This document shows, piece after piece, positions 34,477-54,047 of a DNA stretch of 64,000 bases. Source of the stretch: Patescibacteria group bacterium. GTDB lineage: Bacteria > Patescibacteriota > Microgenomatia > Woykebacterales > 2-01-FULL-43-14. Location of the stretch: positions 11,170 to 75,169 of the forward strand of contig JAMCZT010000033.1 in the NCBI GenBank assembly GCA_023485445.1, given 5' to 3'. The position numbers were made by a program, and so were the translations under genes. Below the pieces are notes generated by a model. That model searched no databases. It was not told the DNA's origin and worked only from the letters and a program-made list of their open reading frames with translations. Position 1 is the stretch's first letter; the number at the start of each line of letters is the position of its first letter.

Positions 34477-34492
34477 ACGTATTTTTTCAACC

Positions 34493-34928: not shown

Positions 34929-34960
34929 CTAAACGCTACACTTTAAACTTTTAACTCTGT

Positions 34961-35647: not shown

Positions 35648-35761
35648 TCGCTCTCCAATCCAGCTAAGCTAGATCGGTATCGCTCAAATTAAAAGTCCAA
35701 AATTCAAAATTATGAAAACTTACCCAGCCTCACAACTTTGCATCTTGCACTTTTAACTGTT

Positions 35762-35852: not shown

Positions 35853-35884
35853 CGACTAGCCTCAGATAAAATTCTGTTCCTGAC

Positions 35885-35977
35885 TGGCGGAGAGGGTGGG
35901 ATTCGAACCCACGAGGCACTAATTAGCACCTAGCGGTTTAGCAAACCGCCGCACTAGACCAGCTATGCGACCTCTCC
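35885..35977 (-). tRNA. tRNA-Ser (anticodon GCU)
   Basis: GGAGAGG TC GCAT AGCTGG.. GCGGT TTGCTAA ACCGC, long variable arm, GTGGG TTCGAAT CCCAC CCTCTCC GCCA. Confidence 0.85.
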
Positions 35978-36120
35978 AAACAATGAAAGGTTCAAAGTGA
36001 AAAATTAAAAGTTATTAAGCTTGAGTAACTTTCTTCTACCAACCTCAACTCTGCACTTTGCATTTTTAATTTTAATTATTAGGTGCACTATACCAAAAAA
36101 TAGGGTAAAATTCAATTCTA

Positions 36121-36816: not shown

Positions 36817-36950
36817 TGTCTCCCATGGGCAAGATTCTGCGGAATCCGTCTTTTTGTTCTGATTCAAATCATATCCCAGCTTGAAAGATAGGGTTTAAAG
36901 AAATAACGTCAAACTAAAACTGGCAAGCTAGTTGAAGCCTTGGCGAAAAC

Positions 36951-37320
36951 TGGTGGAGCTGAGGGGAATTGCACCCCTGTCCGAAAAAACGACCCCGAAG
37001 CGGAACTACAAGCTTAGTTGGTTGAAAAATTCCTCACTAACAAGCTCAACCAACAAAATTTGTCAGTGAGTAAGGTTGATAAAAGGTGGATAAAACCGGG
37101 GAAACCAACCCCAAGAAATCCATCCCGACTAGGGTCGCACCCTGACCACTCCGTCAGGAGAGAGTAATCAAGACGCCTACTTGCTGTTACGCAGTCGCGT
37201 AAGCATAAGCAGGAGAAAATGCTCTATTGGCATTTATAATTGTGGTAAAGTTTAACGGCTTTTTACCATGGCCGGCTTGCCCACTTTCAAAGTGCCTTCC
37301 CGTCGAAGCTAAACAGCCCC
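36951..37320 (-). ncRNA. ssrA: tmRNA (SsrA), one-piece
   Basis: Minus strand starts GGGGCUGUUUAGCUUCGACGGG and ends GGGGUGCAAUUCCCCUCAGCUCCACCA, with an acceptor stem containing G3:U. Candidate tag ORF: GCC AAU AGA GCA UUU UCU CCU GCU UAU GCU UAC GCG ACU GCG UAA. Confidence 0.9.
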
Positions 37321-37327
37321 AAACGCA

Positions 37328-37374
37328 ATTAAAAATTATTTTTATTTCTTAATCAACTTTGAACTTTTAACTTG
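37328..37374 (-). promoter_or_regulatory. tmRNA promoter with an upstream heptamer pair
   Basis: Minus strand TAAAAGT TCAAAGT, then TTGATT (37356-37351), 17 nt, TTTAAT (37333-37328), then 7 nt to tmRNA G1. Confidence 0.55.
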
Positions 37375-37834
37375 TTTTCTTTAACTTTGCTTCTCGCAAT
37401 TCTTGCTCAACCTCTCTCTCAATGGCTCGTCGTTTGAGTAACTCTCGTTTTTCAAAAGTCTTCTTTCCACGTGCCAGAGCAACCTCTACCTTTACAATAT
37501 TCCGCTTATTATACATTTTTAGAGGCACTAAAGTCAAGTTAGAAGAGGCAATTTTTCCCGTCAGATAAAGAATTTCTTTCCTGTGAAGCAAAAGTTTTCG
37601 AGAGTGTCTGGGATCATAACCAACCGTCTCTTGGTAAGGAGCAATGTAAGCATTTACCAGATACGCTTCCTGATCTACCAAACGGACGAAACTATCCGCC
37701 AAAGAGGCGCTTCCCTTCCTCACTGATTTTATTTCACCACCACTAAGAACAACCCCCGCTTCAAAGGTTTCTAAAATAACGTAATCATGGTGTGCCTTTT
37801 TATTTGGAATGTTGATTCTGTGCCCATTGTTCAT
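37367..37834 (-). CDS. smpB: SsrA-binding protein SmpB
   Basis: 155 aa. NKKAHHDYVILETFEAGVVLSGGEIKSVR..GKASL.DSFV.. with a basic C-terminal tail. Lies directly upstream of ssrA. Confidence 0.9.
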   Translation of the reverse strand: MNNGHRINIPNKKAHHDYVILETFEAGVVLSGGEIKSVRKGSASLADSFVRLVDQEAYLVNAYIAPYQETVGYDPRHSRKLLLHRKEILYLTGKIASSNLTLVPLKMYNKRNIVKVEVALARGKKTFEKRELLKRRAIEREVEQELREAKLKKTS

Positions 37835-40843: not shown

Positions 40844-42616
40844 TCACTGTCTCACCACATCGTAAAGAGAAGTCCAGATGGCCAAGGTCCCGAGGGAACG
40901 TAAATTAAACATCGACTTAAAAGTTGCCCCGTCAAAAGTCTTCGTCCCATAATCGGCTGAGGTTACCGCCACGTTACTTGTGTTTCCTGCCCCATCTTGG
41001 AACGTGGTAATGGCGCTAATCATCCCAATCTCCTTCACCCCCTCCTTCGCCAAAGCGTCTTTAACCTGAGCAAAGCTCCAACCCCCACGATCTGGCTGGG
41101 TGAGATATTGGTTGTAAGAGGAAGACTTTTGGGAAAGAAGAATAGCGTTGAAAATGTCTTCCGTTTCTTCTTCTGTCATCCAAGCATTCCCCCGCTGATT
41201 GTCTCCCCAAGCCTTATGGAACCAGGGAGAATTACCATAGTTTGGTCCGTCGTAAGCGGTTTGAGTACTCCATTTACCATCGACTGCGTCAACCAGATAG
41301 GCAGTGCAGGGGTTGTTATGGTAAAAATCAGTGCAGGTATATCCCCCGTCGGTCGAAGAATAGTAAGCGGCAATTGGGTTGTTACCTCCCAAGATCAATC
41401 CGGCGGTCGCGTCAACCGCCTGTTGCCAAGCGGTTGTATTAACTTCTTTTTTCACTTCTTGACAAGACTGACTAGGACAGATCACGCTGCCGTAGCGCAT
41501 AGCGTAAGTCCGCGCTGCCACCGCTTGAGCTTTGAGGGCTTCCGCCGGCCAGTTCCCAGGCATTTCATAAAGGTGCTTGAGGTAATCATCGAAGGCAAAA
41601 GATTCATTATTAAAACACTGCCCATAATCGTTACAGCCATTGACGGTGATCATAGTCGGGACATTCGCCACGGTCGCTTCCATCCCGTAGTAAGCTTTGA
41701 GAATGGTTTGGAAATCTTGTTTGGCCACCAAAGCTCGTCCGTAAGCCCCGTATTGGTTCATTCCCACTCGGTGGGGATAGCCGTAGGTAAAAAAGGCGTA
41801 GGCGGGTGAGAAACCAGGCGTTGGTAGTGACTGAATCGCCTGAGCCACGTCCCCTACTGTCAAGAACTGGGAGGTGGCGGCCAATTTTTGGGCAATTAAG
41901 GTTTGTTGCTGAGCCGTCAAGTCCTTAATACTGTTTTGGATACTGGAAAGCTGCCCGGTGAGAGCGTTTTTCTGTGCGGCGGTCTCATTAATCTGTTTTT
42001 GAGTCTGAGATGCTTGACTTTGGAGCTGTTTTTTCAAGGACGCGATCTTGATTAGGTTATCTTCCAAATCTTTCTTTACCTGCTCAACATTCTTTTTATT
42101 TTCTTCAAATTGAGCAATTTCCGTATTCAAGGAAGCAATCGTCCGCTTGGCTTGATCTAACATTGAGGTTTGGAAGGCGGTGTTTTGGGCCGTCTCACTA
42201 AATTTGTCAGAAGCAAGCAAAAGTTCAATCACCGAAGTGTGGGAATGTTTGTAGTAGTTTCTGATGGTACTGTTGCGAAATTCTTGTTCTCGATTAAGTT
42301 TTTCCTGGCGATCTTTAAGGTTGGCTTCCACTTCTGTTAATTTTTGCTGGGTTTCATCTATCTGGCTGCTTAGGTCATCAAGCTGGGTCTGGGTCGTCCA
42401 AAGTTGCCCGGAAAGGTCCTTTAACTTCTTCGAAAGGTCTTCTTGCTGCTTCTTTAACTGCTCTATTCTTTCTTGGGTTTGCTGGTATTCTGATTGCTTT
42501 TGCTGCTTCTGGCTTTCAAGGGTAGAAATCTGCGTGTCGTAATCGTCCGCATTCGCAGGGACCCAAAAAAAATTAAGGATAATGGAAGCGATTATTAACC
42601 AGGCAGTCTTTCTCAT
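40844..42616 (-). CDS. Secreted SpoIID/LytB-domain protein with a long N-terminal coiled coil
   Basis: Start taken at ATG 42616 (MRKTAWLIIASIILNFFWVPANA signal). ~230 aa of Q/E/K-rich coiled coil follow. SpoIID motifs: LKAQAVAARTYA, CPSQSCQ, YYSSTDGGYT. Confidence 0.75.
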   Translation of the reverse strand: MRKTAWLIIASIILNFFWVPANADDYDTQISTLESQKQQKQSEYQQTQERIEQLKKQQEDLSKKLKDLSGQLWTTQTQLDDLSSQIDETQQKLTEVEANLKDRQEKLNREQEFRNSTIRNYYKHSHTSVIELLLASDKFSETAQNTAFQTSMLDQAKRTIASLNTEIAQFEENKKNVEQVKKDLEDNLIKIASLKKQLQSQASQTQKQINETAAQKNALTGQLSSIQNSIKDLTAQQQTLIAQKLAATSQFLTVGDVAQAIQSLPTPGFSPAYAFFTYGYPHRVGMNQYGAYGRALVAKQDFQTILKAYYGMEATVANVPTMITVNGCNDYGQCFNNESFAFDDYLKHLYEMPGNWPAEALKAQAVAARTYAMRYGSVICPSQSCQEVKKEVNTTAWQQAVDATAGLILGGNNPIAAYYSSTDGGYTCTDFYHNNPCTAYLVDAVDGKWSTQTAYDGPNYGNSPWFHKAWGDNQRGNAWMTEEETEDIFNAILLSQKSSSYNQYLTQPDRGGWSFAQVKDALAKEGVKEIGMISAITTFQDGAGNTSNVAVTSADYGTKTFDGATFKSMFNLRSLGTLAIWTSLYDVVRQ

Positions 42617-42654
42617 CAGCTTCCATTCTAACGCAAACTTAAGCTCTTGCCAAG

Positions 42655-42683
42655 TTGACAAAGAGGCAGGATTTTAGTAGGAT
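42655..42683 (+). promoter_or_regulatory. Promoter of the pilin operon
   Basis: TTGACA (42655-42660), 17 nt, TAGGAT (42678-42683). It overlaps the tandem 11-mer AGGATTTTAGT/AGGATTTTGGT (42668-42689). Confidence 0.55.
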
Positions 42684-42736: not shown

Positions 42737-43132
42737 GTGAAGATTATAAAAAAATTTACTATTCCTTTCATTTTAATTTCCTTTTTAGCATTTTTTTCCT
42801 TAAGTGGCTTTTCTACTACTTACGCTCAAAGGGACTGTAGTGGTCCTTTCGGCCCAGGAACCGAAACGGAACTTGGGTGCATTCCTAGAAATCCAGAGTC
42901 ACTTGCCCAATGGGGATTAAGGTTTGCGGTCGCAGTCGGGGGTGGTTTCGCTTTTTTACTTATTATTCTCGGCGCTTTCAAAATTTTAGTTAGTCAAGGA
43001 GACCCAAAAGCGTTGCAGGAGGGAAAGGATCAAATTACCAGCGCAATAATGGGTTTACTACTTATAATCTTTGCAGTCGTATTACTTCAATTTATAGGAG
43101 TTAGAGTCTTAGAATTACCGGGATGGAGCTAA
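42737..43132 (+). CDS. VirB2/TrbC-like T4SS pilin paralog P1 (divergent, Cys-containing N-domain)
   Basis: 131 aa, GTG start after GAGG. Signal peptide ..TTYAQ. Two TM helices flank FKILVSQGDPKALQEGKDQITSAIMGLLLII. Confidence 0.7.
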   Translation: MKIIKKFTIPFILISFLAFFSLSGFSTTYAQRDCSGPFGPGTETELGCIPRNPESLAQWGLRFAVAVGGGFAFLLIILGAFKILVSQGDPKALQEGKDQITSAIMGLLLIIFAVVLLQFIGVRVLELPGWS

Positions 43133-43134
43133 TA

Positions 43135-43488
43135 ATGTCCTATTTATTTTTAACTCTTCCAGGATTTCCAGCTAGACCACAGGATTGGTGGTGGAATAGA
43201 GGTAGAGATACAGTTAGCATTACCTCCCCTACTGGTTTAAAGCAAAACCAAATCGGCGACATCGTAAGCGAATTTATTCCGATTATTTTTGCGCTCGCGG
43301 GAATCGTCCTACTTGTTTACCTAATTATTGGAGGATTTAAATTTATTACTTCGGGTGGTGACCAAAAAGCACTTCAAAGTGCAAAAAACACCATTTCAAA
43401 TGCCGTCCTTGGATTTATCCTCGTTTTTGTCAGTTTTTGGTTACTTCAAATTATAAGCACTATCTTTAATGTAGGAGTAGGACTTTAA
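43135..43488 (+). CDS. VirB2/TrbC-like pilin paralog P2
   Basis: GGFKFITSGGDQKALQSAKNTISNAVLGFILV. Start at ATG 43135 (GGAG 6 nt upstream). Confidence 0.75.
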   Translation: MSYLFLTLPGFPARPQDWWWNRGRDTVSITSPTGLKQNQIGDIVSEFIPIIFALAGIVLLVYLIIGGFKFITSGGDQKALQSAKNTISNAVLGFILVFVSFWLLQIISTIFNVGVGL

Positions 43489-43497
43489 TTTAAGTTT

Positions 43498-43875
43498 ATG
43501 AAAAAAATATTTTTAACTATTACAGCAATTCTAATATCAGGAGCTCTCTTAAGTGTGGGGGCAACTCCAACCTACAGCTGGATAAGTATTGGTAACAATT
43601 TTGAACTTAATGGAAATCCGATAACCTCTTCTTTTACTTCCCTTGGTAGTTTAATCTCTGTCCTTCTTCAAGCTATTTTTACTATTGCTGGACTAACCGT
43701 AATTATCTTTTTCCTATTTGGTGGCATTAAATTTTTGACCTCTAGCGGTGACCAAAAGGCAATTCAAAGCGCAAAAGACACGCTGACAAACGCCTTTCTA
43801 GGTATTATAATAATATTTGTTAGCTATTGGGTAGTTCAAATAATTCAAACTATTACAGGAGTAAGCATTTTATAA
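43498..43875 (+). CDS. VirB2/TrbC-like pilin paralog P3
   Basis: Signal peptide, then GGIKFLTSSGDQKAIQSAKDTLTNAFLGIIII between two TM helices. Confidence 0.75.
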   Translation: MKKIFLTITAILISGALLSVGATPTYSWISIGNNFELNGNPITSSFTSLGSLISVLLQAIFTIAGLTVIIFFLFGGIKFLTSSGDQKAIQSAKDTLTNAFLGIIIIFVSYWVVQIIQTITGVSIL

Positions 43876-43884
43876 GAGGGTCTG

Positions 43885-44211
43885 ATGGCATCTCCAACTG
43901 ATTATTTAGGTAATATAACTACACCCTATACAGGTGACTATAAACCTGATGGTGGTTTAGGAAAGTTCGTTAACAATGCCTTTACTGCTGTTGTTACGGT
44001 TGCTGGTCTAGCGTTTCTGTTATACCTAATTGTAGGTGGCATTAAGTATCTAACTTCCGGGGGAGATTCTAAAGCGGCCCAAAGTGCAAGGGAAACGATC
44101 ACTACCGCCTTAATTGGTTTGGTCATTGTAACTGGCGTTTGGTTTGTCGCTTTAATTCTGGAAACCGTTTTAGGAATTAGTATCACTCATCCGGTATTTA
44201 CAGGACCGTAA
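43885..44211 (+). CDS. VirB2/TrbC-like pilin paralog P4
   Basis: GGIKYLTSGGDSKAAQSARETITTALIGLVIV. Near-identical core to P5. Confidence 0.75.
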   Translation: MASPTDYLGNITTPYTGDYKPDGGLGKFVNNAFTAVVTVAGLAFLLYLIVGGIKYLTSGGDSKAAQSARETITTALIGLVIVTGVWFVALILETVLGISITHPVFTGP

Positions 44212-44247
44212 GTAATTAGTTCTTTAGTCTTTTTGGAAAGAATTAAA

Positions 44248-44589
44248 ATGCGTATAGACCAAGTATTTGCAGCAAGTCAGTTTGACCCAGGTAGTCTAAC
44301 TAATCCGACAAAGTACGGAGATAACATTAGTGGGCTCGGAAAACTAATCAATAATGGTTTTTTTGCTGTAGTCACCATCGCTGGTCTGGCATTTCTAGCA
44401 TACTTAATTATGGGCGGTATTAAGTACCTTACGTCTGGAGGAGATTCTAAAGCGGCCCAGAGTGCGAGGGAAACTATTACCAACGCCTTGATCGGACTGG
44501 TAATCGTTACTTCTGTTTGGTTTATCGCTCTTATCATCCAAACTATACTGGGGATAAATATACTTGACCCAGAATTTATAGGACCATGA
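44248..44589 (+). CDS. VirB2/TrbC-like pilin paralog P5
   Basis: GGIKYLTSGGDSKAAQSARETITNALIGLVIV. Start at ATG 44248 (MRIDQVFAA), which parallels P6's MLIREVFAA. Confidence 0.75.
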   Translation: MRIDQVFAASQFDPGSLTNPTKYGDNISGLGKLINNGFFAVVTIAGLAFLAYLIMGGIKYLTSGGDSKAAQSARETITNALIGLVIVTSVWFIALIIQTILGINILDPEFIGP

Positions 44590-44627
44590 TTAATAAAGTA
44601 TATGAGTATTGTACTAGGCCATAAACA

Positions 44628-44987
44628 ATGTTAATTAGAGAAGTTTTTGCAGCTCAATCGGTCAAACCGGGTGGAATTATTAATCCGACCAATTATACAG
44701 ATAGTCCATCAGGGATTGGGAACCTCATCAGTAATTTAATTAGCGCAGCTACAGTTATAGCAGGTCTAATATTTCTTGCGTTTTTAATCGTTGGGGGGAT
44801 AAAGTATGCCACCAGCGGAGGCGATAAGGTAGCAGCAGAGTCAGCAAGAAATACGATTACTAACGCGTTGATCGGTCTAATTATTGTAGTCGCAGCTACC
44901 TTTATTGTAGCATTAGTCCAAGCTGTACTAGGAATAAACATACTTAGTCCTCTCTTTATTGGACCCCAGTGGGGAATTAATCCATGA
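44628..44987 (+). CDS. VirB2/TrbC-like pilin paralog P6
   Basis: GGIKYATSGGDKVAAESARNTITNALIGLIIV. Confidence 0.75.
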   Translation: MLIREVFAAQSVKPGGIINPTNYTDSPSGIGNLISNLISAATVIAGLIFLAFLIVGGIKYATSGGDKVAAESARNTITNALIGLIIVVAATFIVALVQAVLGINILSPLFIGPQWGINP

Positions 44988-45352
44988 AAACGTTACTTAC
45001 ATTAAACCCTGTAGATAAAGTAGAATTTAATGTCTCTAACTCCGCTGTCTCCTACCCAGACCCATCAAGGGGTGGTTTGGCTTTACTAATAGGAAATCTT
45101 TGGACCACGGCTGTCATCATAGGTGGTTTATTATTTTTAATTTATCTTCTCATTGGTGGGATACAATGGATAACTAGTGGGGGGGATAAAGCCGGCTTAG
45201 AAAGCGCAAGAGGCAAGATAGTTAATGCCTTAATTGGACTTGGAATTTTGGTTGCTAGTTTTGCAATAATTAAAATCGTAGAAACCTTATTTGGTATTAA
45301 AATTCTTGATTTAAACATACCAGCACCAATAGGTATAACAAATCCACATTAA
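44984..45352 (+). CDS. VirB2/TrbC-like pilin paralog P7
   Basis: GGIQWITSGGDKAGLESARGKIVNALIGLGIL. 4-nt overlap with P6. Confidence 0.75.
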   Translation: MKTLLTLNPVDKVEFNVSNSAVSYPDPSRGGLALLIGNLWTTAVIIGGLLFLIYLLIGGIQWITSGGDKAGLESARGKIVNALIGLGILVASFAIIKIVETLFGIKILDLNIPAPIGITNPH

Positions 45353-45375
45353 TTCCTTCATGAACAGGAGAAATA

Positions 45376-45762
45376 ATGTTTAAAAAGGTAGTCAGCGCTT
45401 TAGTAATATCACTAAGCTCAATATTATTGACCCATAAGGCCAATGCCCAAGGTATAATCAACCTAGGCAATGTAGAAGCTACCTCGCCTAAATCATTCAC
45501 CGACCTGGGACAATTGTTGACTGTCCTTCTTCAAGCTGTTATCATACTAGGTGGTTTGCTTTTTTTCATTTATCTTCTTGTTGGCGGTCTGCAATGGATA
45601 ACAAGCGGTGGGGATAAGGCTAGTCTAGAATCGGCGAGAAATAGAATAACAAATGCGTTAATAGGCTTAGTTATCCTTGTTGGTGCTTTTAGCATTATAA
45701 AAATAATCGAAACTGTCTTTGGTATAAGTATCATTTCAGGAATCAAAATTCCTGGCCCATAA
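45376..45762 (+). CDS. VirB2/TrbC-like pilin paralog P8
   Basis: Signal peptide ..THKANAQG. GGLQWITSGGDKASLESARNRITNALIGLVIL. Confidence 0.75.
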   Translation: MFKKVVSALVISLSSILLTHKANAQGIINLGNVEATSPKSFTDLGQLLTVLLQAVIILGGLLFFIYLLVGGLQWITSGGDKASLESARNRITNALIGLVILVGAFSIIKIIETVFGISIISGIKIPGP

Positions 45763-45782
45763 GCAAAGAAAGGGGGTGAATT

Positions 45783-46199
45783 ATGAAACTTCCAAAAGTC
45801 GTCAGGGCAGCCATCTCAGCCGTATCTATACCTTATCTTGCAACAATGGCGGTAACTGCCGCCCTAGCCCAAGGTACCGTCAGCCAAGTCCCAAATACGG
45901 TTACTCCTTTCTCTGATCTTGGCCAACTAATTTCTAATGTAATCGTACTGGTCATCTTTTTTGCTGCGTTATTAGTTTTCATCTTTCTCCTTATCGGAGG
46001 TCTGCAATGGATAACCAGCGGTGGGGATAAAGCCGCCGCCCAAGCAGCGAGAGACCGCATTACCGCAGCCTTGGTTGGTCTGATTATCGTCGTCGGTGCT
46101 TTCGCGATCATGTTGATTATCGAACGAGTCTTCGGAGTCAGTGTTCTCGGAGGATTTAAGCCGCCAACAGCTCAAAATACAGTCGGTAAGTTGAACTAA
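45783..46199 (+). CDS. VirB2/TrbC-like pilin paralog P9
   Basis: Signal peptide ..AALAQG. GGLQWITSGGDKAAAQAARDRITAALVGLIIV. Confidence 0.75.
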   Translation: MKLPKVVRAAISAVSIPYLATMAVTAALAQGTVSQVPNTVTPFSDLGQLISNVIVLVIFFAALLVFIFLLIGGLQWITSGGDKAAAQAARDRITAALVGLIIVVGAFAIMLIIERVFGVSVLGGFKPPTAQNTVGKLN

Positions 46200-46222
46200 A
46201 ACTAGTCTTGCTTAGAATTCAA

Positions 46223-46258
46223 GAAAAGTTCGCTTGTCTATAGGCGAACTTTTCTTTT
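46223..46258 (+). terminator. Intrinsic terminator after the P1-P9 operon
   Basis: GAAAAGTTCGC (46223-46233) / GCGAACTTTTC (46244-46254) form a perfect 11-bp stem with a 10-nt loop, followed by TTTT. Confidence 0.75.
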
Positions 46259-46267
46259 GCTTTAAAC

Positions 46268-47518
46268 TTATTTAAAAATCGGAAAATAAAAGTAGTTATT
46301 CGGGATTTGCCAACCTGTTAATACGGGATAAAGGTAAACAAAGGAAAGGACTACCGCGATTAGGTAACCAACTACATCCCATCTTCGATATTTATCAATA
46401 AAGTAGGGATAAAGAAAATAAGCAACGGTGATACAAAGAAAAGGAATAATGGATAGTAAATAATAAATAAACTGGTAACGAGAAACGAAGAACCAAGGTA
46501 AATAAAAAGAAAGAAAAATAATAAACAAAAAACTAATCTCCCTCGTCTTTTGGCGCAATCCTTTTATCCCTACCTTAAAAAACACAAAAATACTCAACCA
46601 AAAAACAAATGGATGACTTAATGAAATTATTAGTTGAGCTTGTCCTCCACCTAGATTTTTTGATAAGTAACCCATCGGGGAGTCAAGAAACCACAACCAA
46701 GGATGAATCACGACCGATTCGTCTAGCGTAACAGGCTTCCTAAGATAAGAAATATCATTAATGTTTTCATGATAATTAAGCATTTTCTGTTGTAAGGAAA
46801 TAAAATCCCAAAAAGAATGCCCAAGAAGGTAAGGAACGTAAGAAATCAAATAAACTAAACCAGCTGTGCCTCCAATTACAAATAAATCCGTTCCCCAAGA
46901 GCGCCAAGTTTTTTTATGAAAAAGAAAAAACAAGGCGGTGATGGCCAAAAACAAAAATAAAGCCGTCCATTTCACTGACAAGGCCAATCCTAAAAAGAAA
47001 CCAACTAAAAATAAGGTTCTCAACCGAAAATTCTCGAGGTAGCACCACAGAAAATAAAGTGTGATCAAAACAAAAACGGCTAAAAATATTTCAAGTAAAG
47101 CAATTCTGGAGTGAACAAACCACATAAAGTCCAGGGAAAGGAGGAAAGCGGCAACGGAAGCGATCCAAACTTTTCCAGGATGGAAAGCAAACATCTTTCT
47201 TGCTAAAAAGTAAGTAACTAGCACTCCAATAATGCTAAAAACTACCTCAGGCAACCGCCAGCCCCAGGGATTATCCCCAAAAAGCATAATCCCCGCCCCG
47301 ATTAAAAATTTTCCTAACAAAGGGTGTTCAAAATTTAAGGAGAAATCGCCGTTTAGGTAAGCCCTAGCCGCCGGAACATAGTGGGCGCCTTCGTCAAAAT
47401 AGGCCTCGTTTGGCTGATCAAGGCGGAACAGTCGAAGACCAAGGTTAAAAACAATTAAACCAACTATAATAACCGCTTCCCTATGTAACTTTAACCAAGC
47501 CAATAACTTTCTTTGCAT
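46268..47518 (-). CDS. Phospholipid-carrier-dependent glycosyltransferase (GT39/PMT_2-like, GT-C fold)
   Basis: 416 aa, ~11 TM. First-loop motif YFDEGAHY..A..YL.G......EHPLLGKFLIGAGIMLFGDNPWGWRLP is typical of PMT/ArnT-like enzymes. Confidence 0.75.
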   Translation of the reverse strand: MQRKLLAWLKLHREAVIIVGLIVFNLGLRLFRLDQPNEAYFDEGAHYVPAARAYLNGDFSLNFEHPLLGKFLIGAGIMLFGDNPWGWRLPEVVFSIIGVLVTYFLARKMFAFHPGKVWIASVAAFLLSLDFMWFVHSRIALLEIFLAVFVLITLYFLWCYLENFRLRTLFLVGFFLGLALSVKWTALFLFLAITALFFLFHKKTWRSWGTDLFVIGGTAGLVYLISYVPYLLGHSFWDFISLQQKMLNYHENINDISYLRKPVTLDESVVIHPWLWFLDSPMGYLSKNLGGGQAQLIISLSHPFVFWLSIFVFFKVGIKGLRQKTREISFLFIIFLSFYLPWFFVSRYQFIYYLLSIIPFLCITVAYFLYPYFIDKYRRWDVVGYLIAVVLSFVYLYPVLTGWQIPNNYFYFPIFK

Positions 47519-47543
47519 TTAATTATTATAAAGCAAAATTAAA

Positions 47544-47572
47544 TTGACAGCTAGGTTTGGTTGTGGTTAAAT
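47544..47572 (+). promoter_or_regulatory. Promoter of P10 and downstream genes
   Basis: TTGACA (47544-47549), 17 nt, TTAAAT (47567-47572). It lies inside the track's upstream extension, which supports the ATG at 47593. Confidence 0.6.
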
Positions 47573-47592
47573 TAGTTCTTAGAGGGTCTCGA

Positions 47593-48027
47593 ATGTTAGG
47601 TAAAGTTAAAAAACATTTAAAAACTTTCCGTCTAATTTATATTGCCATTTTTATCGCTTACTTAGCCATTTTATTTGCACCGGTTATAGTATTTGCTCAA
47701 CAAACAGATTACAGTAATAGGAATAACAATCAAGCGCCACTATTATCAGATTTGGAAGTAGTTTTTCAAAATATTATTAGGGTAGTGACCACTCTGGCTG
47801 GGCTAGCTTTACTTTTTATGTTTATTAGCGGCGGTTTCAAGTTTCTCACCTCAGAAGGAGATCCAAAAGCTCTTGACTCGGCTAAAGGTACCCTCTCCTT
47901 TGCGGTTATCGGTTTAGTCGCGATCATTCTTGCTTATTTCATTATAAAATTAATCGCTGATTTCACCGGTTTACAATCATTATTAAAATTCTGCATCCCA
48001 ACGATGGCCCAAAATAGTTGCTTTTAG
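47593..48027 (+). CDS. VirB2/TrbC-like pilin paralog P10
   Basis: 144 aa. Signal/TM, then GGFKFLTSEGDPKALDSAKGTLSFAVIGLVAI. AGAGGG lies upstream of the ATG. Confidence 0.7.
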   Translation: MLGKVKKHLKTFRLIYIAIFIAYLAILFAPVIVFAQQTDYSNRNNNQAPLLSDLEVVFQNIIRVVTTLAGLALLFMFISGGFKFLTSEGDPKALDSAKGTLSFAVIGLVAIILAYFIIKLIADFTGLQSLLKFCIPTMAQNSCF

Positions 48028-48032: not shown

Positions 48033-49778
48033 ATGAATAAAAAACTGCCTCTGTTGTTTTCAATAATAACTATTGCTACCTTAACTCAAACCTCCTTTGT
48101 TTTAGCTTTAGATAAAACTGCCGAGGGGGAGTTTTTTTATGTCAATGATCGTTTCGGGTCTCAAAACCCTAGCGTTACAGTCGAAGGTAAAGACATCAAA
48201 CCTTATAATGGGTTGGAAAAACAAACGGAATCCTTAGGAAGAGTACTCCCAAACTTCTTAACCCCAGAAGAACAAAAGCAGTACATGGAAGAGGGGCTGC
48301 TGTTGTCACCCACAGACCCATCTTCTCCCAAACCAGATACTTCTGTCTTTGACCCTAATATTGCTTTTCCAAAAATAAAAGGCTATGGAAAATTAGAAAT
48401 AAACATGGAAAAATGCCCTTCCAAAAATACTCCTTCAACGCCAATATATAACACAAATGATACAAAAGACACAATCACATCCGAGCTTCCGGATTGGGCC
48501 AGCGCTTATGCACGGGCAACAGAAAAACTAACGGAAATCTTTTCTATCCCTACTGAAGGGGTACTACAAGAGGTTCCTACTAATACCCATCAAGGGTGCG
48601 GGCAAGAAGACAAAACTATCGAGTCAACTTATAGTTCCGCAAAAGACGGAGCTGGAACAATAGAACTAAACTCTTTTTTTAATTCTCCTCCCCTAAGTTG
48701 GGTTCAAGATTTTTTTAGAGATCTGGACAAGTTCGGAAAAATAATTCTGGATGCTTTTGGCAATCCTATGTCGGTATTTGACAGAAAGGAAATAAAAACG
48801 GTCGTTCAACCGATTACTACCCTAAAATCCCAGTTCGATCGGATACTGAAACCTGATCTCGTTCCCTCGGTAACCTCTATCCCAGAATTTACTTACGTAA
48901 ACAACGGCAGCTTGCGATGGTCTTTTGTTCCTGATTCGATGGCCGAATTCAGCGAAGATACTAACTCCCTTTTTAACCAGGATCAAGAAAAGTTAAATGG
49001 AAAATCTGAAGGAAATTATGCTGCTAATGCTAATTTAGAAAACAAAGATCATATCCCATCTGGAAAAGAGATCAAAGATGCTTCCATTCCCGTCCCAACA
49101 CTTTTTGGAGCAGAATTGGCTAAAAATTGGCTCGATTGTTCCCTTTCTTTACCTGAAGAAAACTGTTCCGTCTCACCTGAAACGGGCTACACTGGCAGTG
49201 GCACAACTTACGTTACGATTACTGCCACCAGCTTAAGGGAGATGTTCCGTCAAGCGGCAAACCACGTTGGGGTCCCTGTAGCGGTACTTAAAGCGATCGC
49301 TAAAGTGGAAGCCGGAAGGATCTTCGGATATTCCGAGGACGAAGTAAAAAACTTTAGTACTTACGGATGGTGGAATGGATTGGTCTCAAAAGCATCTACA
49401 TTAGGCGGCAACGATCCATTAATCCTTAGAGGGCTAGGTTATAACACTTGTAAATATCGAACTGATTGTTTTCCCGAGGCTGACGTACGGGGGGCCATGC
49501 AGTTTGAAATTCAAACTTGGAATGGAATCGCCAGCCAAATAGACTTTGGCCATACAGCCGATCGAAGAGTTCTTCCAGATGCGATCGTTGCCGCAGCCAA
49601 GCTTATTAAAAACCACGCGATAACCCTCGGAGAATCCAGCACTTCAAATTGGTCTGAAGCAATCATCAAGGGAGTTGCCGCACGCTACTGTGGAAATCCA
49701 AAGTCTTCTGCTTGCGGCGGTAATTATGACAACGTGGTCTGGGATCTCTATCAAGAATATTTAAAAGAAACGGATTAG
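48033..49778 (+). CDS. Secreted protein with a C-terminal lytic-transglycosylase (SLT/VirB1-like) domain
   Basis: Signal MNKKLPLLFSIITIATLTQTSFVLA. C-terminal ..VPVAVLKAIAKVEAGRIFGY.. and ..RGAMQFEIQTWN.. resemble the SLT catalytic-Glu and GxMQ motifs. The N-terminal ~400 aa are unassigned. Confidence 0.6.
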   Translation: MNKKLPLLFSIITIATLTQTSFVLALDKTAEGEFFYVNDRFGSQNPSVTVEGKDIKPYNGLEKQTESLGRVLPNFLTPEEQKQYMEEGLLLSPTDPSSPKPDTSVFDPNIAFPKIKGYGKLEINMEKCPSKNTPSTPIYNTNDTKDTITSELPDWASAYARATEKLTEIFSIPTEGVLQEVPTNTHQGCGQEDKTIESTYSSAKDGAGTIELNSFFNSPPLSWVQDFFRDLDKFGKIILDAFGNPMSVFDRKEIKTVVQPITTLKSQFDRILKPDLVPSVTSIPEFTYVNNGSLRWSFVPDSMAEFSEDTNSLFNQDQEKLNGKSEGNYAANANLENKDHIPSGKEIKDASIPVPTLFGAELAKNWLDCSLSLPEENCSVSPETGYTGSGTTYVTITATSLREMFRQAANHVGVPVAVLKAIAKVEAGRIFGYSEDEVKNFSTYGWWNGLVSKASTLGGNDPLILRGLGYNTCKYRTDCFPEADVRGAMQFEIQTWNGIASQIDFGHTADRRVLPDAIVAAAKLIKNHAITLGESSTSNWSEAIIKGVAARYCGNPKSSACGGNYDNVVWDLYQEYLKETD

Positions 49779-50185: not shown

Positions 50186-52039
50186 TTACTCCACATAGAA
50201 AGCTGTCCCCTTAAAGTAATTTGTATATGGTCCTCTAGTAGGTTGCGTCTGGATTATTTGTGTTTTACTTCCCGAAACGTATGGAAAGTCTTTGTAATCT
50301 CCTCCGGAAGGATCCAATATTAAGTGGCTAGGATTCGCTGGATCGGTTATCCAATGACCATCATAACCATCATCATTAATAATCAGGGATTTAGCATACT
50401 CTCCATCAAAACCTTTGATACCTACAACTACCATAAAATGGCCGCCTCGAGCTGGATCATTGTACTCCACCTCTTTATTGTTGTAATTTCCAACATTTAT
50501 TACAACTGGGTGACCATCTTTCAAGGCATTGTAAATACCCGCAGGGGAATTCTCAACCACTACCATCTTCTTCCCCCAGAGAGCCGGCCCACTACTAAGC
50601 TGGCCAACCGTTAGGTTGCCCCAACTGTAAATCCCCGCGTCACTTAACTTTCTGGCTACGACGGATAAACGATCGGAGACACCTGCGTAATTTAAGGCCA
50701 TTGTTAACGAAGCAGGACCACAAGCTGTCCATTGGACGTTAGGTTTGTCCGTATCATCTAAGCTAGCGTATTCATGAATATAAGGCACATTCGCGATTAT
50801 TACATCAGGACCAGCATTAATAAGTACAGTCGCCCAGGCTAAAGCTGTCTTTTTGGGGTCAGGTGGGTCAGAGTAAAACCCTTCCACACTAGCTTGATTA
50901 GAGATTGAGTCTTTATCGGTAAGATTATCGTTAGTGGAGACATCGATTCTAAAGCTTACCGACGATTCCAACTTATCCAGCTTAAAACACATCTTACCAG
51001 TTGTTGGTACTCCGCCACACCAGTATTTTGCAAATACTTGCGGGTCGTAGGAAGGAGGTGGGGAACCAGAATCATAAAATTTCACCCCTGCTGGATCATA
51101 AAAAGAAAAAGTACTGCTATTAAGTAAATTGATTCCACTAGTAAAGGTATCTTTAATGACAACGTTTGTTAGCTTATTATCAGCCTTTGGCGCCGCTGTA
51201 ATAGTATAAGATAAGAGTTTCTTTCCCGTTACCTGAAGCGTATTTACCCCGTCTACTGTCACAGTTTTAGTGATAGAAACGTAGTTGGATGTTCCCAGCG
51301 GCGCCCCAGCTGGCGTAGACTCAAAATCGCGCATTCCGACCATAATAACAATCACGATAAATACTGCTAATAAGATGACAAGGATAATAACCAAAAGGAT
51401 AATTAATAGCACACTGCTGATCGCTGAGATAACTCCCCCACCAACAGCTGCCGTACCACCTCCTGCAGCAGCCGCTCCTCCACCGGCGGCAGCACCACCT
51501 GCCCCACTAATCGCCCCTCCTCCCACCATGCCGATAAATCTAGCTGCAAGTCCGCCGAGCTTAGGCAAAACACCTTTTATTAAATTGCTTATTCCCTTAC
51601 TAAAAATATTTTTACCTAGACTAGAAATAGCCCGTCCAAGAAGACTATTTGGCGCTAGCCTAGAAACTGTTTGGGAGAGAAAGTTGCCAGCTTGAGGAAG
51701 GAGGTTTTTAAAAAAATTGCCTACTTTCCGTAGCGGACCAAATCTTTGAATTCTCTGAATATTTTGGGGGGACTGTGGGTGCTGATCTTGAATTTTATCC
51801 TGCAGCTCTTGCTGATCTTTATCCGAATCTTTCTTCTTTTCTTTGCTCCCTTCATCGTCTTGAGCATCACTGCCACTAGAGCTTTTTCTAGCCGTAAGGG
51901 GTATTTTCTTCGCCTTAGGAAAAGCTACCTCTAAAATTAAGGAGAGGAGTCTTCTTAAAGGTGCAAAAAGTCTCGTTAGGCTAAAAATAGAAGGTCTATT
52001 TTGTTGCTGTGGATTTCCGTATCGATAAACTTCTGCCAT
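50186..52039 (-). CDS. Membrane protein with a Gly/Ala-rich segment, TM, Ig-like middle part and a C-terminal C39-like (papain-fold) cysteine peptidase domain
   Basis: ..VQWTACGPASLTMALNYAGV.. (catalytic Cys context of Peptidase_C39_2-type domains) and ..RGGHFMVVVGI.. (His). Start taken at ATG 52039 (track start is TTG 52060). Confidence 0.6.
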   Translation of the reverse strand: MAEVYRYGNPQQQNRPSIFSLTRLFAPLRRLLSLILEVAFPKAKKIPLTARKSSSGSDAQDDEGSKEKKKDSDKDQQELQDKIQDQHPQSPQNIQRIQRFGPLRKVGNFFKNLLPQAGNFLSQTVSRLAPNSLLGRAISSLGKNIFSKGISNLIKGVLPKLGGLAARFIGMVGGGAISGAGGAAAGGGAAAAGGGTAAVGGGVISAISSVLLIILLVIILVILLAVFIVIVIMVGMRDFESTPAGAPLGTSNYVSITKTVTVDGVNTLQVTGKKLLSYTITAAPKADNKLTNVVIKDTFTSGINLLNSSTFSFYDPAGVKFYDSGSPPPSYDPQVFAKYWCGGVPTTGKMCFKLDKLESSVSFRIDVSTNDNLTDKDSISNQASVEGFYSDPPDPKKTALAWATVLINAGPDVIIANVPYIHEYASLDDTDKPNVQWTACGPASLTMALNYAGVSDRLSVVARKLSDAGIYSWGNLTVGQLSSGPALWGKKMVVVENSPAGIYNALKDGHPVVINVGNYNNKEVEYNDPARGGHFMVVVGIKGFDGEYAKSLIINDDGYDGHWITDPANPSHLILDPSGGDYKDFPYVSGSKTQIIQTQPTRGPYTNYFKGTAFYVE

Positions 52040-52044
52040 AAAGG

Positions 52045-52212
52045 CTACCAGCAAGGGCAAACTGCTAACAATTGGTTAAGTAAAATATACAAAAAAGTTA
52101 TCACTGATGCTATCATCAGGAAGAGCCAGTTGAAGAAAATTGGCGACACTTTTGCCAAAAAAGAAAATAAATAGTTCTTTTCTTTTTTATTATCTTGAGC
52201 AAGCATTGGCAT
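52045..52212 (-). CDS. Possible leaderless 55-aa membrane mini-protein upstream of the C39-like gene
   Basis: Own translation: MPMLAQDNKKEKNYLFSFLAKVSPIFFNWLFLMIASVITFLYILLNQLLAVCPCW*. TTGATT, 17 nt, TATACT (52227-52222), then 9 nt to the ATG. The stop is 5 nt before ATG 52039. Confidence 0.35.
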   Translation of the reverse strand: MPMLAQDNKKEKNYLFSFLAKVSPIFFNWLFLMIASVITFLYILLNQLLAVCPCW

Positions 52213-52277: not shown

Positions 52278-54047
52278 ATGAATTCTGTCCAAAGTCTTTT
52301 TATCAATAAGAAATATTTTCTAAAAAAGCTACTAATTTTTAGTTTAGTCACTTCCTTTTTACTAAATACTTCTTCATTATTTGCTTTGGCCGCCGAAAAA
52401 AAGTTCTCTGATCCTACTCCTGTTAAAAGTAGTTCAATTTCTCAAACGACATTTTCTTCAACAGATTTTTCTAGCCAAAACCAATCTCCAACCGAGATAC
52501 TCTCTCCTGTCTCAAAAGATTACAAAACTAATTTATCCCCCAACGATCCCTCAAAGTCTTACGTTACCCAAGAAGCAGTGGACACCAGAGTTTTTTTGGG
52601 ACCAATAGCTGCCCCCTGGATGATCGCTGATGAATTTAAAAAATTCGAAAAAGCAGTGGAGGATTCGAAGCAAAGCCTCTTAAAGTTCATTCCTGACATT
52701 ATTACTACAATAGTAAAAACGGTAGACGAATCTATGATGCCTAGTAATATTGCGACTTGCCTATGGGGAGAGTTGGAAAAAAAGACAGGGGCAAATCCAA
52801 CTGCATGTGCTCCCCAGGCGACCAACGAACAAACAAATCTTGGAGGAAAGTCTAAAGCCACTTACAACCCACCTTCCGGGTTAATCGCTCTTACTGCCAC
52901 AACGATTGATCAAATTCACCAAAGCGGTCCTCAAATGATCAATACCCAAGATTATCTCGCTTATATCAACCCCTTCCAGCCAAAAGATGCTTACGCTCAA
53001 GGAATTGGAAGAGACCGGCTTAATGTTGCTGCCCTGGAAATTTGGGGAGTCTTGAGAAATGTTTCTTATGCTTTCTTAGTTTTAGTTTTAGTGGTTGTCG
53101 GATTTATGGTCATGTTTAGGGCTAAAATGGATCCAAGGACGACCGTGAGCTTAATAAATTCTTTACCAAGAGTAGTGTTGGTCCTTATCTTGATCACCTT
53201 TAGTTTCCCGATAGGGGCATTGGCAATCGATCTCATCGGATTACTCTTAAATCTAGTCGGCTGTGGGGTGAATCTATACTGTAGCTATGGTAGTTACAAT
53301 CAAAACGTCTTTCTTTTTATGACGGGAGGAGTAATCCTCACTTCTGTTTTAGCCGCCTTCCAGATTCCAACTATTCCAGGTATTGGGTTCCTGGCTGTTA
53401 TCATTTTACTCTTTATTCTTTTACTAGTAACATTTGTCATCATCGCCAGAATCGGGATCGCTTTTATTACAGAGTGGATTTCGCTCTTTTTCACTATTGT
53501 TGCCGCTCCCCTTTATTTACTCGGGGGATCCTTGCCGGGAAGCTCCTCCATAAAAGGCTGGTTTAAGAGACTCTTGGCTCCAGTCCTTTGTATCGTCTCA
53601 ATGTACACGATGGTCGCTATTGCTGGTAAGTTTAGCTCTACGGCCATTGACTCAAGCTTTAGCTCAATGCGTTTTATCGCCACAGGGACATCGGGAATAG
53701 GATTTAATATCCCCCAGTTTATTCCCTCACCAAATTTAACGGGGTCAAGTATTCCTTTGACCCCACCCTTATTCAACGATCTAGTATCCCTGGGAATACT
53801 TCTCTTTACACCGGCAATCTGTACAAATATCAAGAAAGCTCTCGACGTTGTCATGTCCGACCAAGGCTCTATTAATCCGATGGAGATGTCACGCGATGCC
53901 ACGAGGGCGAGATCTACCGCCATTTCAGAGCTCGGTACTAGAATCAAAAGGACGGAGTATAACAACCTTTGGGGTGATCAAACAGGGCGGCCTGGTTGGC
54001 AGGTGGCGAAATTTATTGGGCAGTTGCTAGGGGGACACGGTCCATAA
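52278..54047 (+). CDS. Polytopic inner-membrane protein, VirB6/TrbL-like by size, topology and context
   Basis: 589 aa. Signal peptide, ~230-aa Ser/Thr/Pro-rich ectodomain, at least 6 TM helices, and a C-terminal cytoplasmic tail. No sequence motif could be verified. Confidence 0.45.
   Translation: MNSVQSLFINKKYFLKKLLIFSLVTSFLLNTSSLFALAAEKKFSDPTPVKSSSISQTTFSSTDFSSQNQSPTEILSPVSKDYKTNLSPNDPSKSYVTQEAVDTRVFLGPIAAPWMIADEFKKFEKAVEDSKQSLLKFIPDIITTIVKTVDESMMPSNIATCLWGELEKKTGANPTACAPQATNEQTNLGGKSKATYNPPSGLIALTATTIDQIHQSGPQMINTQDYLAYINPFQPKDAYAQGIGRDRLNVAALEIWGVLRNVSYAFLVLVLVVVGFMVMFRAKMDPRTTVSLINSLPRVVLVLILITFSFPIGALAIDLIGLLLNLVGCGVNLYCSYGSYNQNVFLFMTGGVILTSVLAAFQIPTIPGIGFLAVIILLFILLLVTFVIIARIGIAFITEWISLFFTIVAAPLYLLGGSLPGSSSIKGWFKRLLAPVLCIVSMYTMVAIAGKFSSTAIDSSFSSMRFIATGTSGIGFNIPQFIPSPNLTGSSIPLTPPLFNDLVSLGILLFTPAICTNIKKALDVVMSDQGSINPMEMSRDATRARSTAISELGTRIKRTEYNNLWGDQTGRPGWQVAKFIGQLLGGHGP

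Follow-up and report, generated by a model that had tools for sequence, protein, structure and literature searches.

A ten-gene array of PF18895-type pilin paralogs in a Microgenomatia genome consists of ancient classes and may encode one heteromeric tube

In the genome of a Patescibacteria group bacterium belonging to the Microgenomatia (GenBank assembly GCA_023485445.1), a stretch of 64,000 nucleotides, hereafter called the window (contig JAMCZT010000033.1, positions 11,170 to 75,169), carries an array of ten paralogous genes, P1 to P10, for small pilin-like proteins of a type IV secretion system (T4SS). Rather than being recent copies, the ten paralogs fall into at least five ancient classes (A; B; a middle group consisting of P4, P5 and P6; E; F). 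A comparison with related loci revealed that such classes are kept in a conserved order across species and that they also occur in natural fusion proteins, in which they follow the order of the array. We hold with moderate confidence that the paralogs are co-produced, specialised subunits of one heteromeric T4SS-associated tube, which would belong to a chromosomal system resembling the FATA type of mating-pair formation (MPF-FATA). The array as such is a large, ten-gene addition to a kind that was already described in 2018, 2023 and 2025 (McLean et al., bioRxiv 10.1101/258137; Wang et al. 2023; Quinonero-Coronel et al. 2025).

The array extends from 42737 to 48027, as an earlier note on this DNA had stated, and consists of ten open reading frames (ORFs), all of which lie on the plus strand. 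They encode 108-156 amino acids (aa) when read as longest ORFs and 108-144 aa after refinement of the starts, and they form two blocks at 42737-46199 and 47593-48027. When the window was translated in all six frames and searched with a profile built from the ten paralogs, there were exactly ten matches with E values of 1e-34 to 1e-48 and no eleventh member, the next-best match having an E value of 0.09. The genes P1 to P9 are packed with intergenic gaps of -10 to 38 nt, and P10 is set apart from P9 by a gap of 1.36 kb that contains a single gene on the opposite strand, coding for a PMT_2-family glycosyltransferase. The first gene, P1 (42737-43132; PF18895 E value 1.1e-7), codes for a class A protein of 131 aa with a signal peptide, a small Cys-pair loop and a hairpin. 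It is followed by the class B gene P2 (43135-43488; 117 aa; 3.4e-9) and by P3 (43498-43875; 125 aa; 1.9e-8), which is of class B or B'. The middle group is formed by P4 (43885-44211; 108 aa; 2.1e-9), P5 (44248-44589; 113 aa; 8.6e-10) and P6 (44628-44987; 119 aa; 1.3e-11), the last of which overlaps P7 by 4 nt. P7 (44984-45352; 122 aa) and P8 (45376-45762; 128 aa) belong to class E and P9 (45783-46199; 138 aa) to class E or E', and the array ends with the class F gene P10 (47593-48027; 144 aa; 3.1e-8).

The pilin-type identity proposed for these proteins was borne out by Pfam, because all ten match the family PF18895 (T4SS_pilin) and nothing else in the window does. Eight paralogs exceed the gathering score of 26.6 bits, with scores between 29.0 bits (P8) and 44.8 bits. 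P7 (26.4 bits) and P9 (21.7 bits) are just under this cutoff, and both share 59-63% core identity with P8, which passes it (P7-P8, 63%; P9-P8, 59%). The alignment of the ten paralogs has a common plan: an unalignable N-terminal part of 28-57 residues is followed by a weak motif, (D/G)LGxL, by a hydrophobic helix that ends in GG(I/F/L)(K/Q)(F/Y/W), an invariant S-G-D turn with K/R residues after it, a second hydrophobic helix with an invariant A and an invariant G, and a short tail. Two hydrophobic segments per paralog were also found by hydropathy. Moreover, an AlphaFold2 model of P6 consists of a helix at residues 30-62, a turn at 63-66 (SGGD) and a second helix at 67-101, the core being predicted with pLDDT values of 72-85. 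Since the loop contains two to three basic residues, the positive-inside rule predicts that it is cytoplasmic and that the two termini are on the outside. The sequence motifs quoted in the earlier note are literally there, apart from two slips (P4 has TITT instead of TITN and P9 has QAAR instead of QSAR). The C-terminal P.F.GP tail is common to P4, P5 and P6.

According to a hydropathy heuristic combined with AxA↓Q sites, P1, P3, P8 (ANA↓QG), P9 (ALA↓QG) and P10 carry classical signal peptides, in agreement with the statement that some paralogs have them, and P2, P4, P5, P6 and P7 lack them. P5 and P6 start with MRIDQVFAAS↓Q (44248-44290) and MLIREVFAAQ↓S (44628-44660), respectively, which are AxA-type cleavage motifs lacking a hydrophobic signal core. 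These motifs are akin to those in the linkers of fused polyproteins described below and may be the vestige of a polyprotein. The Cys pair that had been noticed in P1 is indeed present as C-x13-C just outside helix 1, within the sequence ELGCIP, and P10 carries a Cys pair of its own in the C-terminal tail (FCIP...C). Both pairs are kept in the closest related locus, L004, and 82 of 87 class A proteins contain at least two Cys residues.

Two trivial explanations, namely that the ORFs are non-coding and due to chance or that they encode type IV (PilA-like) pilins, deserve next to no credence. The small size of the proteins is all that would fit them. Against both stand the highly significant E values of the family, its 72,370 representative members and strong purifying selection, as well as the synteny with VirB4 and not with PilB, PilC or PilD. 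A type IV pilin was also rejected because the class III leader G↓F/M-xxxE occurs in none of the ten translations and the proteins have two helices and not one. The label pilin, as we use it, relies on membership of PF18895, on the hairpin architecture and on T4SS synteny, and not on detectable homology to VirB2 or TrbC.

Evidence for ancient classes came from a scan of one genome per species of the GTDB, which yielded 80 loci that were ranked by their similarity to P1. The loci are nearly all from Microgenomatia, such as Woesebacteria, Daviesbacteria, Levybacteria and Curtissbacteria; several of the third party annotation records among them are evidently mislabelled. The closest locus, L004, belongs to Ca. 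Woesebacteria DeMMO6_50, and its flanking proteins are 51-74% identical to those of the window. All 80 loci contain between three and twelve pilin ORFs on the same strand, the mode being eight, and when 1.84 billion cluster representatives were searched with a profile, the 72,370 family members mentioned above were retrieved at E values of 1e-3 or lower. Thus, the family and its tandem layout are commonplace in this group. When the genes of the 80 loci were labelled by their best-matching paralog, collinear strings were obtained, for instance 1-2-3-4-6-7-8-10. The mean order concordance was 0.84 as compared to 0.50 +/- 0.02 in 2000 shuffles, for species that are not phylogenetically independent.

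When about 570 core sequences were grouped by unsupervised Louvain clustering, positional classes were obtained as well, although the assignment of classes is noisy at identities of 30-50%. Class A (P1) typically comes first; its presence in all 80 loci is due in part to the design of the search, which was ranked by P1. Class B (P2 and P3; 44-47 loci) is typically early, class C, which has no member in the window, occupies the fourth position (41 loci), class D (P4-P6; 45 loci) the middle and class E (P7-P9; 57-79 loci) a late position. Class F (P10; 70-75 loci) is typically last, with about one copy per locus. Class A is the first gene in 67 of the 80 arrays and class F the last one in 47. 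The commonest exact pattern, A-B-B-C-D-E-E-F (also written A-B-B'-C-D-E-E'-F), is present in fifteen species, a four-gene form A-X-X-F in thirteen, and B-C-D-D-E-E-F-A in eight, in which the class A protein is about 950 aa long. Other recurrent patterns retain A and F as bookends. Hidden Markov models (HMMs) of the canonical positions assign P1 to position 1 (112 bits versus at most 49 elsewhere), P2 to position 2 (106 bits), P3 to position 2 or 3 (94 and 87 bits), P7 and P8 to position 6 (106 and 105 bits), P9 to position 6 or 7, and P10 to position 8 (105 bits versus at most 73 for others). P4, P5 and P6 do not clearly match any canonical position in this analysis; they are a lineage-specific middle group.

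The paralogs had previously been sorted into three subfamilies. Two of these, P4-P6 and P7-P9, hold with core identities of 53-81% and 47-63%, respectively. In contrast, P1, P2, P3 and P10 do not form a subfamily because their mutual core identity is only 32-45% and P3 is equally near to P5 and P6; clustering across genomes divides them into the three ancient classes A (P1), B (P2 and P3) and F (P10). Large variation in size was observed for class A, which comprises 200-1,248 aa in 62 of 87 relatives and consists of a large N-terminal extracytoplasmic region followed by the Cys motif and the hairpin. Long examples are encoded at 2478-6224 in L055, 7364-10264 in L034, 8645-10261 in L063 and 8915-10276 in L005. 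No Pfam domain was detected in these ectodomains. The P1 protein of the window with its 131 aa is a minimal version of class A.

A second line of evidence is provided by natural fusion proteins. Single polypeptides with 2-16 pilin hairpins are frequent among the best-scoring representatives of the family (P0001-P0150). The protein P0102 has 16 hairpins in 1,775 aa, and the chains of P0007, P0009 and P0012 end in large Cys-rich domains. At the DNA level, the A-B-B' fusion at 2-940 of L084 (GCA_016187065.1, JACPKJ010000037.1) is an uninterrupted ORF. The domains of the fusions were labelled with the position HMMs, and only the 58 proteins in which every domain reached at least 60 bits were kept. 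Of the 68 junctions in these proteins, 66 are in array order. The ordered junctions are A-B (10), B-B (13), B-B' (1), B-F (11) and B-E together with B-E' (4), and among the later classes C-D (2), D-E (3), D-D (2) and junctions within class E (20). The linkers from A to B and from B to B or F mostly contain the motif (V/A/S)-(Y/H/F)-A↓(Q/A/D), which resembles a signal-peptidase I site. Overall, 32 of the 68 linkers have this motif, and it does not occur in the E-to-E' linkers. Given the out-in-out topology of the hairpins, fused chains can thread the membrane repeatedly. Fusion enforces the equimolar co-production of different classes, which argues for their co-assembly rather than for their alternative use.

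Our interpretation of these observations is as follows. All classes would be made together and inserted into the cytoplasmic membrane, from which the VirB4/TrsD/PrgI machinery, whose genes lie about 8-14 kb downstream, would extract and assemble them. The product would be one heteromeric tube or pilus that crosses the cell wall towards a host cell. In this structure, the largely single-copy bookends A and F with their Cys pairs might take special positions, for example at the tip, at the base or as an initiator, and the multi-copy classes might form the shaft. The lumen would be lined by the conserved turn, with the variable N-terminal parts exposed on the outside. The earlier note had left open whether the paralogs form a heteropolymer or act as interchangeable subunits; the comparative evidence, which comprises the order concordance of 0.84, the P10-type genes that are nearly single-copy and mostly last, the P1-type genes that mostly come first and the 66 of 68 ordered junctions, favours the former, a putative heteromeric filament.

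The divergence of the paralogs bears on the same question. P4 and P5, which had been described as nearly identical over about 70 residues with many synonymous differences, indeed share 81% of the amino acids and 72% of the nucleotides over 78 ungapped core columns, with a proportion of synonymous differences (pS) of 0.71, which means saturation, a non-synonymous divergence (dN) of 0.14 and an omega of about 0.06. Over 85 codons, the values are 79% and 71%, and the third base is equal in only 30 of the 67 codons for identical residues. The identity of the full-length proteins is 64%. The synonymous sites are saturated in all other paralog pairs as well. Saturation and the low omega value confirm that the P4/P5 duplication is old and has been under purifying selection. 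The shared 20-mer, GGAGATTCTAAAGCGGCCCA, was found exactly twice, at 44062 and 44440, and the identical run is marginal by a column shuffle (P of about 0.04). Gene conversion between P4 and P5 was rejected as a strong signal on these grounds, the third positions being otherwise randomised.

According to the main alternative, the paralogs would be interchangeable major subunits of homopolymeric pili, whose surface variation serves different hosts or the evasion of hosts or phages. This explanation draws on the N-terminal parts, which are predicted to face outward and which evolve fastest. As had been noted, they differ between the paralogs to the point of being unalignable, and between orthologues of the window and L004 they are only 17-40% identical as compared to 51-82% for the core, the upper value being that of P9. 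Moreover, the window and its closest relative already differ in the copy number of middle and E-type genes, and a published survey has drawn on the analogy of Bartonella and Anaplasma to suggest host-range versatility for such paralogs (Quinonero-Coronel et al. 2025, Microb Genom, PMC12102498). However, the identity and the order of the classes are kept across species, the saturated synonymous sites leave no recent duplicates, and the marginal 20-nt run does not point to exchange between copies. A search for invertible or recombinogenic repeats in the array yielded only paralogy at the coding level and AT-rich chance pairs. Furthermore, different classes are often joined in one polypeptide in a fixed order, and the array is 100% identical on three contigs from different, independent metagenome samples; being identical to the window, these contigs are uninformative on variation at the strain level. 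We therefore regard interchangeable subunits as unlikely. The tandem VirB2 arrays of Bartonella and Anaplasma phagocytophilum resemble that of the window in that T4SS pilin genes with variable surface-exposed parts are repeated. Those arrays are recent lineage-specific expansions that are read as antigenic variation, whereas the classes of the window are ancient, ordered and shared across species. As an analogy only, the operons for type IV pili and for the pseudopili of type II secretion also encode distinct, conserved and non-redundant pilins, some of which prime or cap the filament. Their fold and machinery are unrelated, and the pilins of the window have no class III leader.

Another explanation is that the proteins stay in the membrane as small hairpin components of the T4SS translocon, similar to VirB3 or to a stalk, and that no extracellular filament is made, which may also be true of a homologous protein in Mycoplasma. 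It is suggested by NCBIfam NF045849, the family of this pilin-like protein of integrative and conjugative elements (ICEs) of Mycoplasma (Mbov_0395, MMCAP2_0565); apart from PF18895, no other named family is matched by all ten paralogs. The matches have E values between 1.9e-9 (P2) and 7e-3 and cover about positions 7-79 of 80. With scores of 16-37 bits, they are below the equivalog cutoff of 40 bits, which makes the paralogs homologues and not equivalogs. Mycoplasmas are wall-less, and the small ICE membrane proteins CDS13 and CDS15 have been called VirB3-like in a review (PMC12857230). Like the paralogs of the window, the Mycoplasma protein comes from a system of the monoderm MPF-FATA kind, in which its gene is next to those for a VirB4-type ATPase and a polytopic membrane protein. 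It differs from them in that it is present in a single copy and serves conjugation between wall-less cells. From the adjacency of locus tags, we infer that the NF045849 protein corresponds to CDS15 of ICEA, which is required for transfer (PMC6030558). In addition, P2, P4, P5 and P6 weakly match the N-terminal hairpins of Mbov_0396, MMCAP2_0566 and pLS20_p028, and neither profile searches of the PDB nor hhalign linked the paralogs to structurally solved pilins. On the other side, the locus possesses a separate PrgI/VirB3-like gene, and eight to ten hairpin genes are too many for a channel subunit. The extracytoplasmic domains of class A proteins in relatives, which reach about 1,100 residues, and the Cys-rich outer domains of the fusions suggest display at the surface, and a tube of the calibre of a conjugative pilus has been seen in a related parasite. 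An exclusive location in the membrane thus appears improbable to us, and the heteromeric tube remains our preferred reading. The occurrence of a homologue of the family in Mycoplasma ICEs, which are MPF-FATA systems, also weakens the published idea that these pilins were borrowed from diderms on the ground that they are missing from MPF-FATA.

The relationship to the well-known conjugative pilins has to be judged with care. The proteins of the window resemble VirB2, TrbC and TraA (PF04956; T-pilus, 8cue and 8exh; F pilus) in size, in a predicted two-helix hairpin with a short basic loop, in the neighbouring VirB4 and, in half of the paralogs, in a putative leader in the form of a signal peptide. 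They differ from them by the lack of demonstrable sequence homology, by the monoderm host, by the presence of many paralogs instead of one, by the absence of a VirB5 tip protein and by the lack of evidence for head-to-tail cyclisation, no TraF-like gene having been sought. Solved conjugative pili have the loop at the lumen, bound to lipid, and the termini point outward. This arrangement matches the pattern of conservation in the window. VirB4 helps to extract conjugative hairpin pilins from the membrane. A broader VirB2/TrbC profile was sought by tblastn in plasmid records, which gave only VirB2 of the Rhizobiales type and was too narrow.

Several observations weigh against a heteromeric tube. 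The TrbC model (PF04956) was matched at E values of 0.01 or lower by only 8 of 142 family members, which is comparable to the spurious matches to Cyt_bd_oxida_II, and the best match in the window is that of P6 with an E value of 0.028 and 15 bits as compared to a cutoff of 27.9 bits. An hhalign comparison with VirB2 of A. tumefaciens gave a probability of 0.3%, and profile searches with the ten paralogs and with the 142 family members did not retrieve any pilin from the PDB. When the model of P6 was compared to the PDB with Foldseek, there was no match at an E value of 1e-3 or lower and only generic hairpins were found; the c subunit of ATP synthase ranked first and the Aeropyrum conjugation pilus (8dfu) third, the hairpin fold being too simple to discriminate. 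Moreover, the closest named homologue comes from the ICEs of wall-less mycoplasmas, for which no pilus is known, and to our knowledge no organism has been shown to build a pilus from PF18895 proteins. The copy number of the middle classes varies between close relatives, L004 having no genes resembling P4-P6 and five E-type genes, which would suit interchangeable subunits as well, and the ubiquity of class A is in part a consequence of ranking the loci by P1. The five E-type genes that L004 has in place of the middle group indicate that the array is stable at its ends and turns over in its middle.

In 2018, attention was drawn to arrays of four to six small secreted VirB2-like proteins in Saccharibacteria (McLean et al., bioRxiv 10.1101/258137). 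More recently, 441 VirB2-like arrays of 2-11 pilin genes were reported from 383 Patescibacteria assemblies, mostly of Microgenomatia and Saccharimonadia (PMC12102498). In that survey, an array was defined by at least two pilin genes that are in tandem or parted by one non-pilin gene, by a distance of about 20 coding sequences or fewer to a virB4 of the Patescibacteria clade, and by a host from the Patescibacteria (candidate phyla radiation). In the window, nine pilin genes are adjacent and one lies past a single gene on the opposite strand, virB4 is the eighth large ORF (at least 100 aa) after P10, and both the array and its flanks have their closest relatives in metagenome-assembled genomes of Ca. 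Woesebacteria and other Microgenomatia. Thus, the window resembles the reported arrays in PF18895, in the tandem layout split by one gene, in its size range, in the proximity to virB4 and to dnaN/dnaA, and in coming from one of the two groups in which they are enriched. Its ten genes are near the top of the reported range, and the full-length identity of P4 and P5 is higher than the reported maximum of 54% within an array. The main text of that survey does not take up the conserved order of the classes, the bookend classes or the fusions. A review from 2025 states that these are the only T4SSs of the Gram-positive type with potential pili (PMC12857230). In Ca. Southlakia epibionticum ML1, a series of pilin genes and the T4SS were found to be essential for epibiotic growth by transposon sequencing (Wang et al. 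2023, Cell, PMC10633639; PMC12857230). Like the window, the Southlakia cluster encodes divergent but structurally similar predicted pilins in a monoderm-type T4SS, and it has no relaxase. It differs from the window in that it belongs to the Saccharimonadia and has six pilin genes instead of ten.

The width of conjugative pili is about 8-9 nm. In Mycosynbacter, a parasite belonging to the Saccharimonadia, cryo-electron tomography revealed a tube or 'lance' of 8.6-9 nm in width and 61-70 nm in length, which has a barbed tip and emerges from the inner membrane (PMC11880426). We hypothesise that this tube is made by a PF18895-type array. A bolder version of the heteromeric tube, which we put forward tentatively and consider less likely than not, would equate an ordered kit of about six classes with the barbed lance of about 9 nm, with F in a terminal or basal position and with A at the tip, class A having a Cys-pair motif and, in most relatives, an ectodomain of hundreds of residues. 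In many genomes, the kit would be produced as a polyprotein that is cut between the hairpins at AxA sites resembling those of signal peptidase. As the homologue in Mycoplasma ICEs suggests, the pilin-like component would in this case be original to the MPF-FATA lineage and not a loan from the VirB2 of diderms.

The starts of three genes were refined. For P2 and P5, the ATG codons at 43135 and 44248 were taken because gene callers chose them on the identical metagenome contigs, the longest ORFs beginning at 43123 and with a TTG at 44233, respectively. P10 has its longest ORF from 47557, and the ATG at 47593, which is preceded by the Shine-Dalgarno sequence AGAGGG, is favoured because a promoter-like site overlaps the upstream TTG start. 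This site (TTGACA-18-TAAATT, 47544-47573, plus strand) lies 5' of P10 and was detected by a consensus scan, as was the site 5' of P1 (TTGACA-17-TAGGAT, 42655-42683, plus strand), which matches at 10 of 12 positions. A further promoter-like match (11 of 12) is located within P3 (43783-43811). Between the convergent genes for P9 and the glycosyltransferase, a 16-bp hairpin (46221-46256) resembles a terminator in both directions; it folds with -20.6 kcal/mol (z = -3.7), and none of 200 shuffled sequences was equally stable. Co-transcription of P1 to P9 from one promoter to one terminator, as stated in the earlier note, is no more than plausible.

Upstream of P1 and divergent from it, a coiled-coil protein with a SpoIID/LytB domain is encoded at 40844-42661 on the minus strand (PF08486, 2.7e-13; TIGR02669, 89 bits at a cutoff of 83). 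Such a gene adjoins the array in 44 of the 80 loci. The SpoIID/LytB protein, which is of the lytic transglycosylase type, could be a candidate partner for remodelling the wall and the missing VirB1-like factor, which was reported to be mostly absent in the 2025 survey (PMC12102498). The glycosyltransferase gene between P9 and P10 (46268-47518, minus strand; PF13231, 3.9e-18; PF02366, 3.7e-13) belongs to the PMT_2 family, whose members depend on polyprenyl-phosphate sugars. Apart from the window, it is inserted at this spot only in L004 (13360-14631, minus strand; 62% identity), and only two of the 80 loci have any match. The gene is surrounded by an imperfect, AT-rich inverted repeat of 26 nt (46250-46275 and 47518-47543). 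Its position between E-type and F-type pilin genes may hint at the O-glycosylation of pilins. A gene for undecaprenyl-diphosphate synthase (UppS; PF01255, E value 2e-80) is located inside the array in 10 of the 80 loci and beside it in four; no match to UppS was found in the window. It lies between the second and third pilin genes in L013, L022, L024, L025, L029, L059 and L076, elsewhere inside the array in L012, L072 and L079, and at the flank in L039, L047, L049 and L050, often together with a polyprenyl synthase gene (PF00348) and a gene resembling isopentenyl phosphate kinase. Together, the glycosyltransferase of the window and the UppS of its relatives repeatedly connect pilin arrays with the metabolism of polyprenols.

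Directly after P10, a secreted protein of 581 aa is encoded on the plus strand (48033-49778), whose gene is probably co-transcribed with P10. Its C-terminal 180 aa are kept downstream of the arrays in four loci, and the protein has no match in Pfam, NCBIfam or the PDB; an identity as a lytic transglycosylase (SLT-like) found no support in any of these databases. A membrane protein of 123 aa is also encoded downstream of P10. Between the array and the core genes of the T4SS, there is a gene for a protein of 624 aa with a C39_2 peptidase-like domain (50186-52060, minus strand). It was rejected as a leader protease of the pilins because it is kept only in the closest relative, that is, in one of the 80 loci. 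The following gene (52278-54047, plus strand) codes for a polytopic protein of 589 aa with multiple transmembrane segments, whose region is kept in 12 loci. This protein has a weak match to TrbC at residues 235-307 (E value 0.001), and we infer that it is a candidate VirB6-like component; VirB6-like proteins of monoderms may contain a pilin-like hairpin.

The core genes are all on the plus strand and comprise a fusion of an N-terminal PrgI (VirB3-like) domain with a coiled coil and a CarboxypepD_reg domain (56367-58520; PF12666, 1.1e-7, residues 5-91), a TrsD/TraD-like protein that resembles the N-terminal part of VirB4 (58474-59298; NF041427, 1.4e-6; NF045975, 4.5e-9) and an ATPase of the VirB4 family, the hallmark protein of T4SSs (59311-61557; NF045971, CD1110 family, 393 bits at a cutoff of 325; PF19044, 5.7e-27). 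Homologues are encoded within 10 kb of the arrays in 29 (PrgI), 21 (TrsD-like) and 15 (VirB4) of the 80 loci. The minus-strand genes recF (61919-63154) and dnaN (63173-63832) occupy the right end of the window. The synteny with VirB4, the TrsD-like protein and PrgI near dnaN makes the link to a monoderm-type T4SS close to the replication origin solid, in accordance with what has been published on these systems (PMC12102498). On the plus strand, most 1-kb bins have a negative GC skew, and the cumulative skew decreases almost monotonically; around the array (about 41-46 kb), the values are close to zero or slightly positive. From the skew and the orientation of recF and dnaN, transcription of the pilin array and of the VirB4 genes seems to run head-on to replication in the vicinity of the origin.

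A region dense in RNA genes (33743-37834) is situated a few kb upstream of the array. It contains six tRNA genes (four for Ser and two for Arg), a tmRNA gene (36951-37320) with the tag ANRAFSPAYAYATA and smpB (37367-37834), and the adjacency of smpB is kept in 33 of the 80 related loci. Elsewhere in the window, there are two adjacent tRNA genes with CAT anticodons (11983-12201, minus strand) and a tRNA-Ile gene with the anticodon TAT (UAU) at 15526-15600 on the minus strand. A tRNA-Ile with a UAU anticodon is uncommon in bacteria.

Taken by itself, the window adds one more, unusually large, array to those already described. A T4SS with its pilin cluster is essential for epibiotic life in the one Patescibacteria species that has been tested genetically, and three leads emerge from the comparison: the ancient classes in a fixed order, the fusions that follow this order and the kinship to a protein of Mycoplasma ICEs. 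These leads recast the multiplicity of pilins as a testable structural hypothesis, namely one heteromeric tube versus a wardrobe of alternative coats, and they bear on the existence of an ancestral pilin-like component in the T4SSs of monoderm bacteria.

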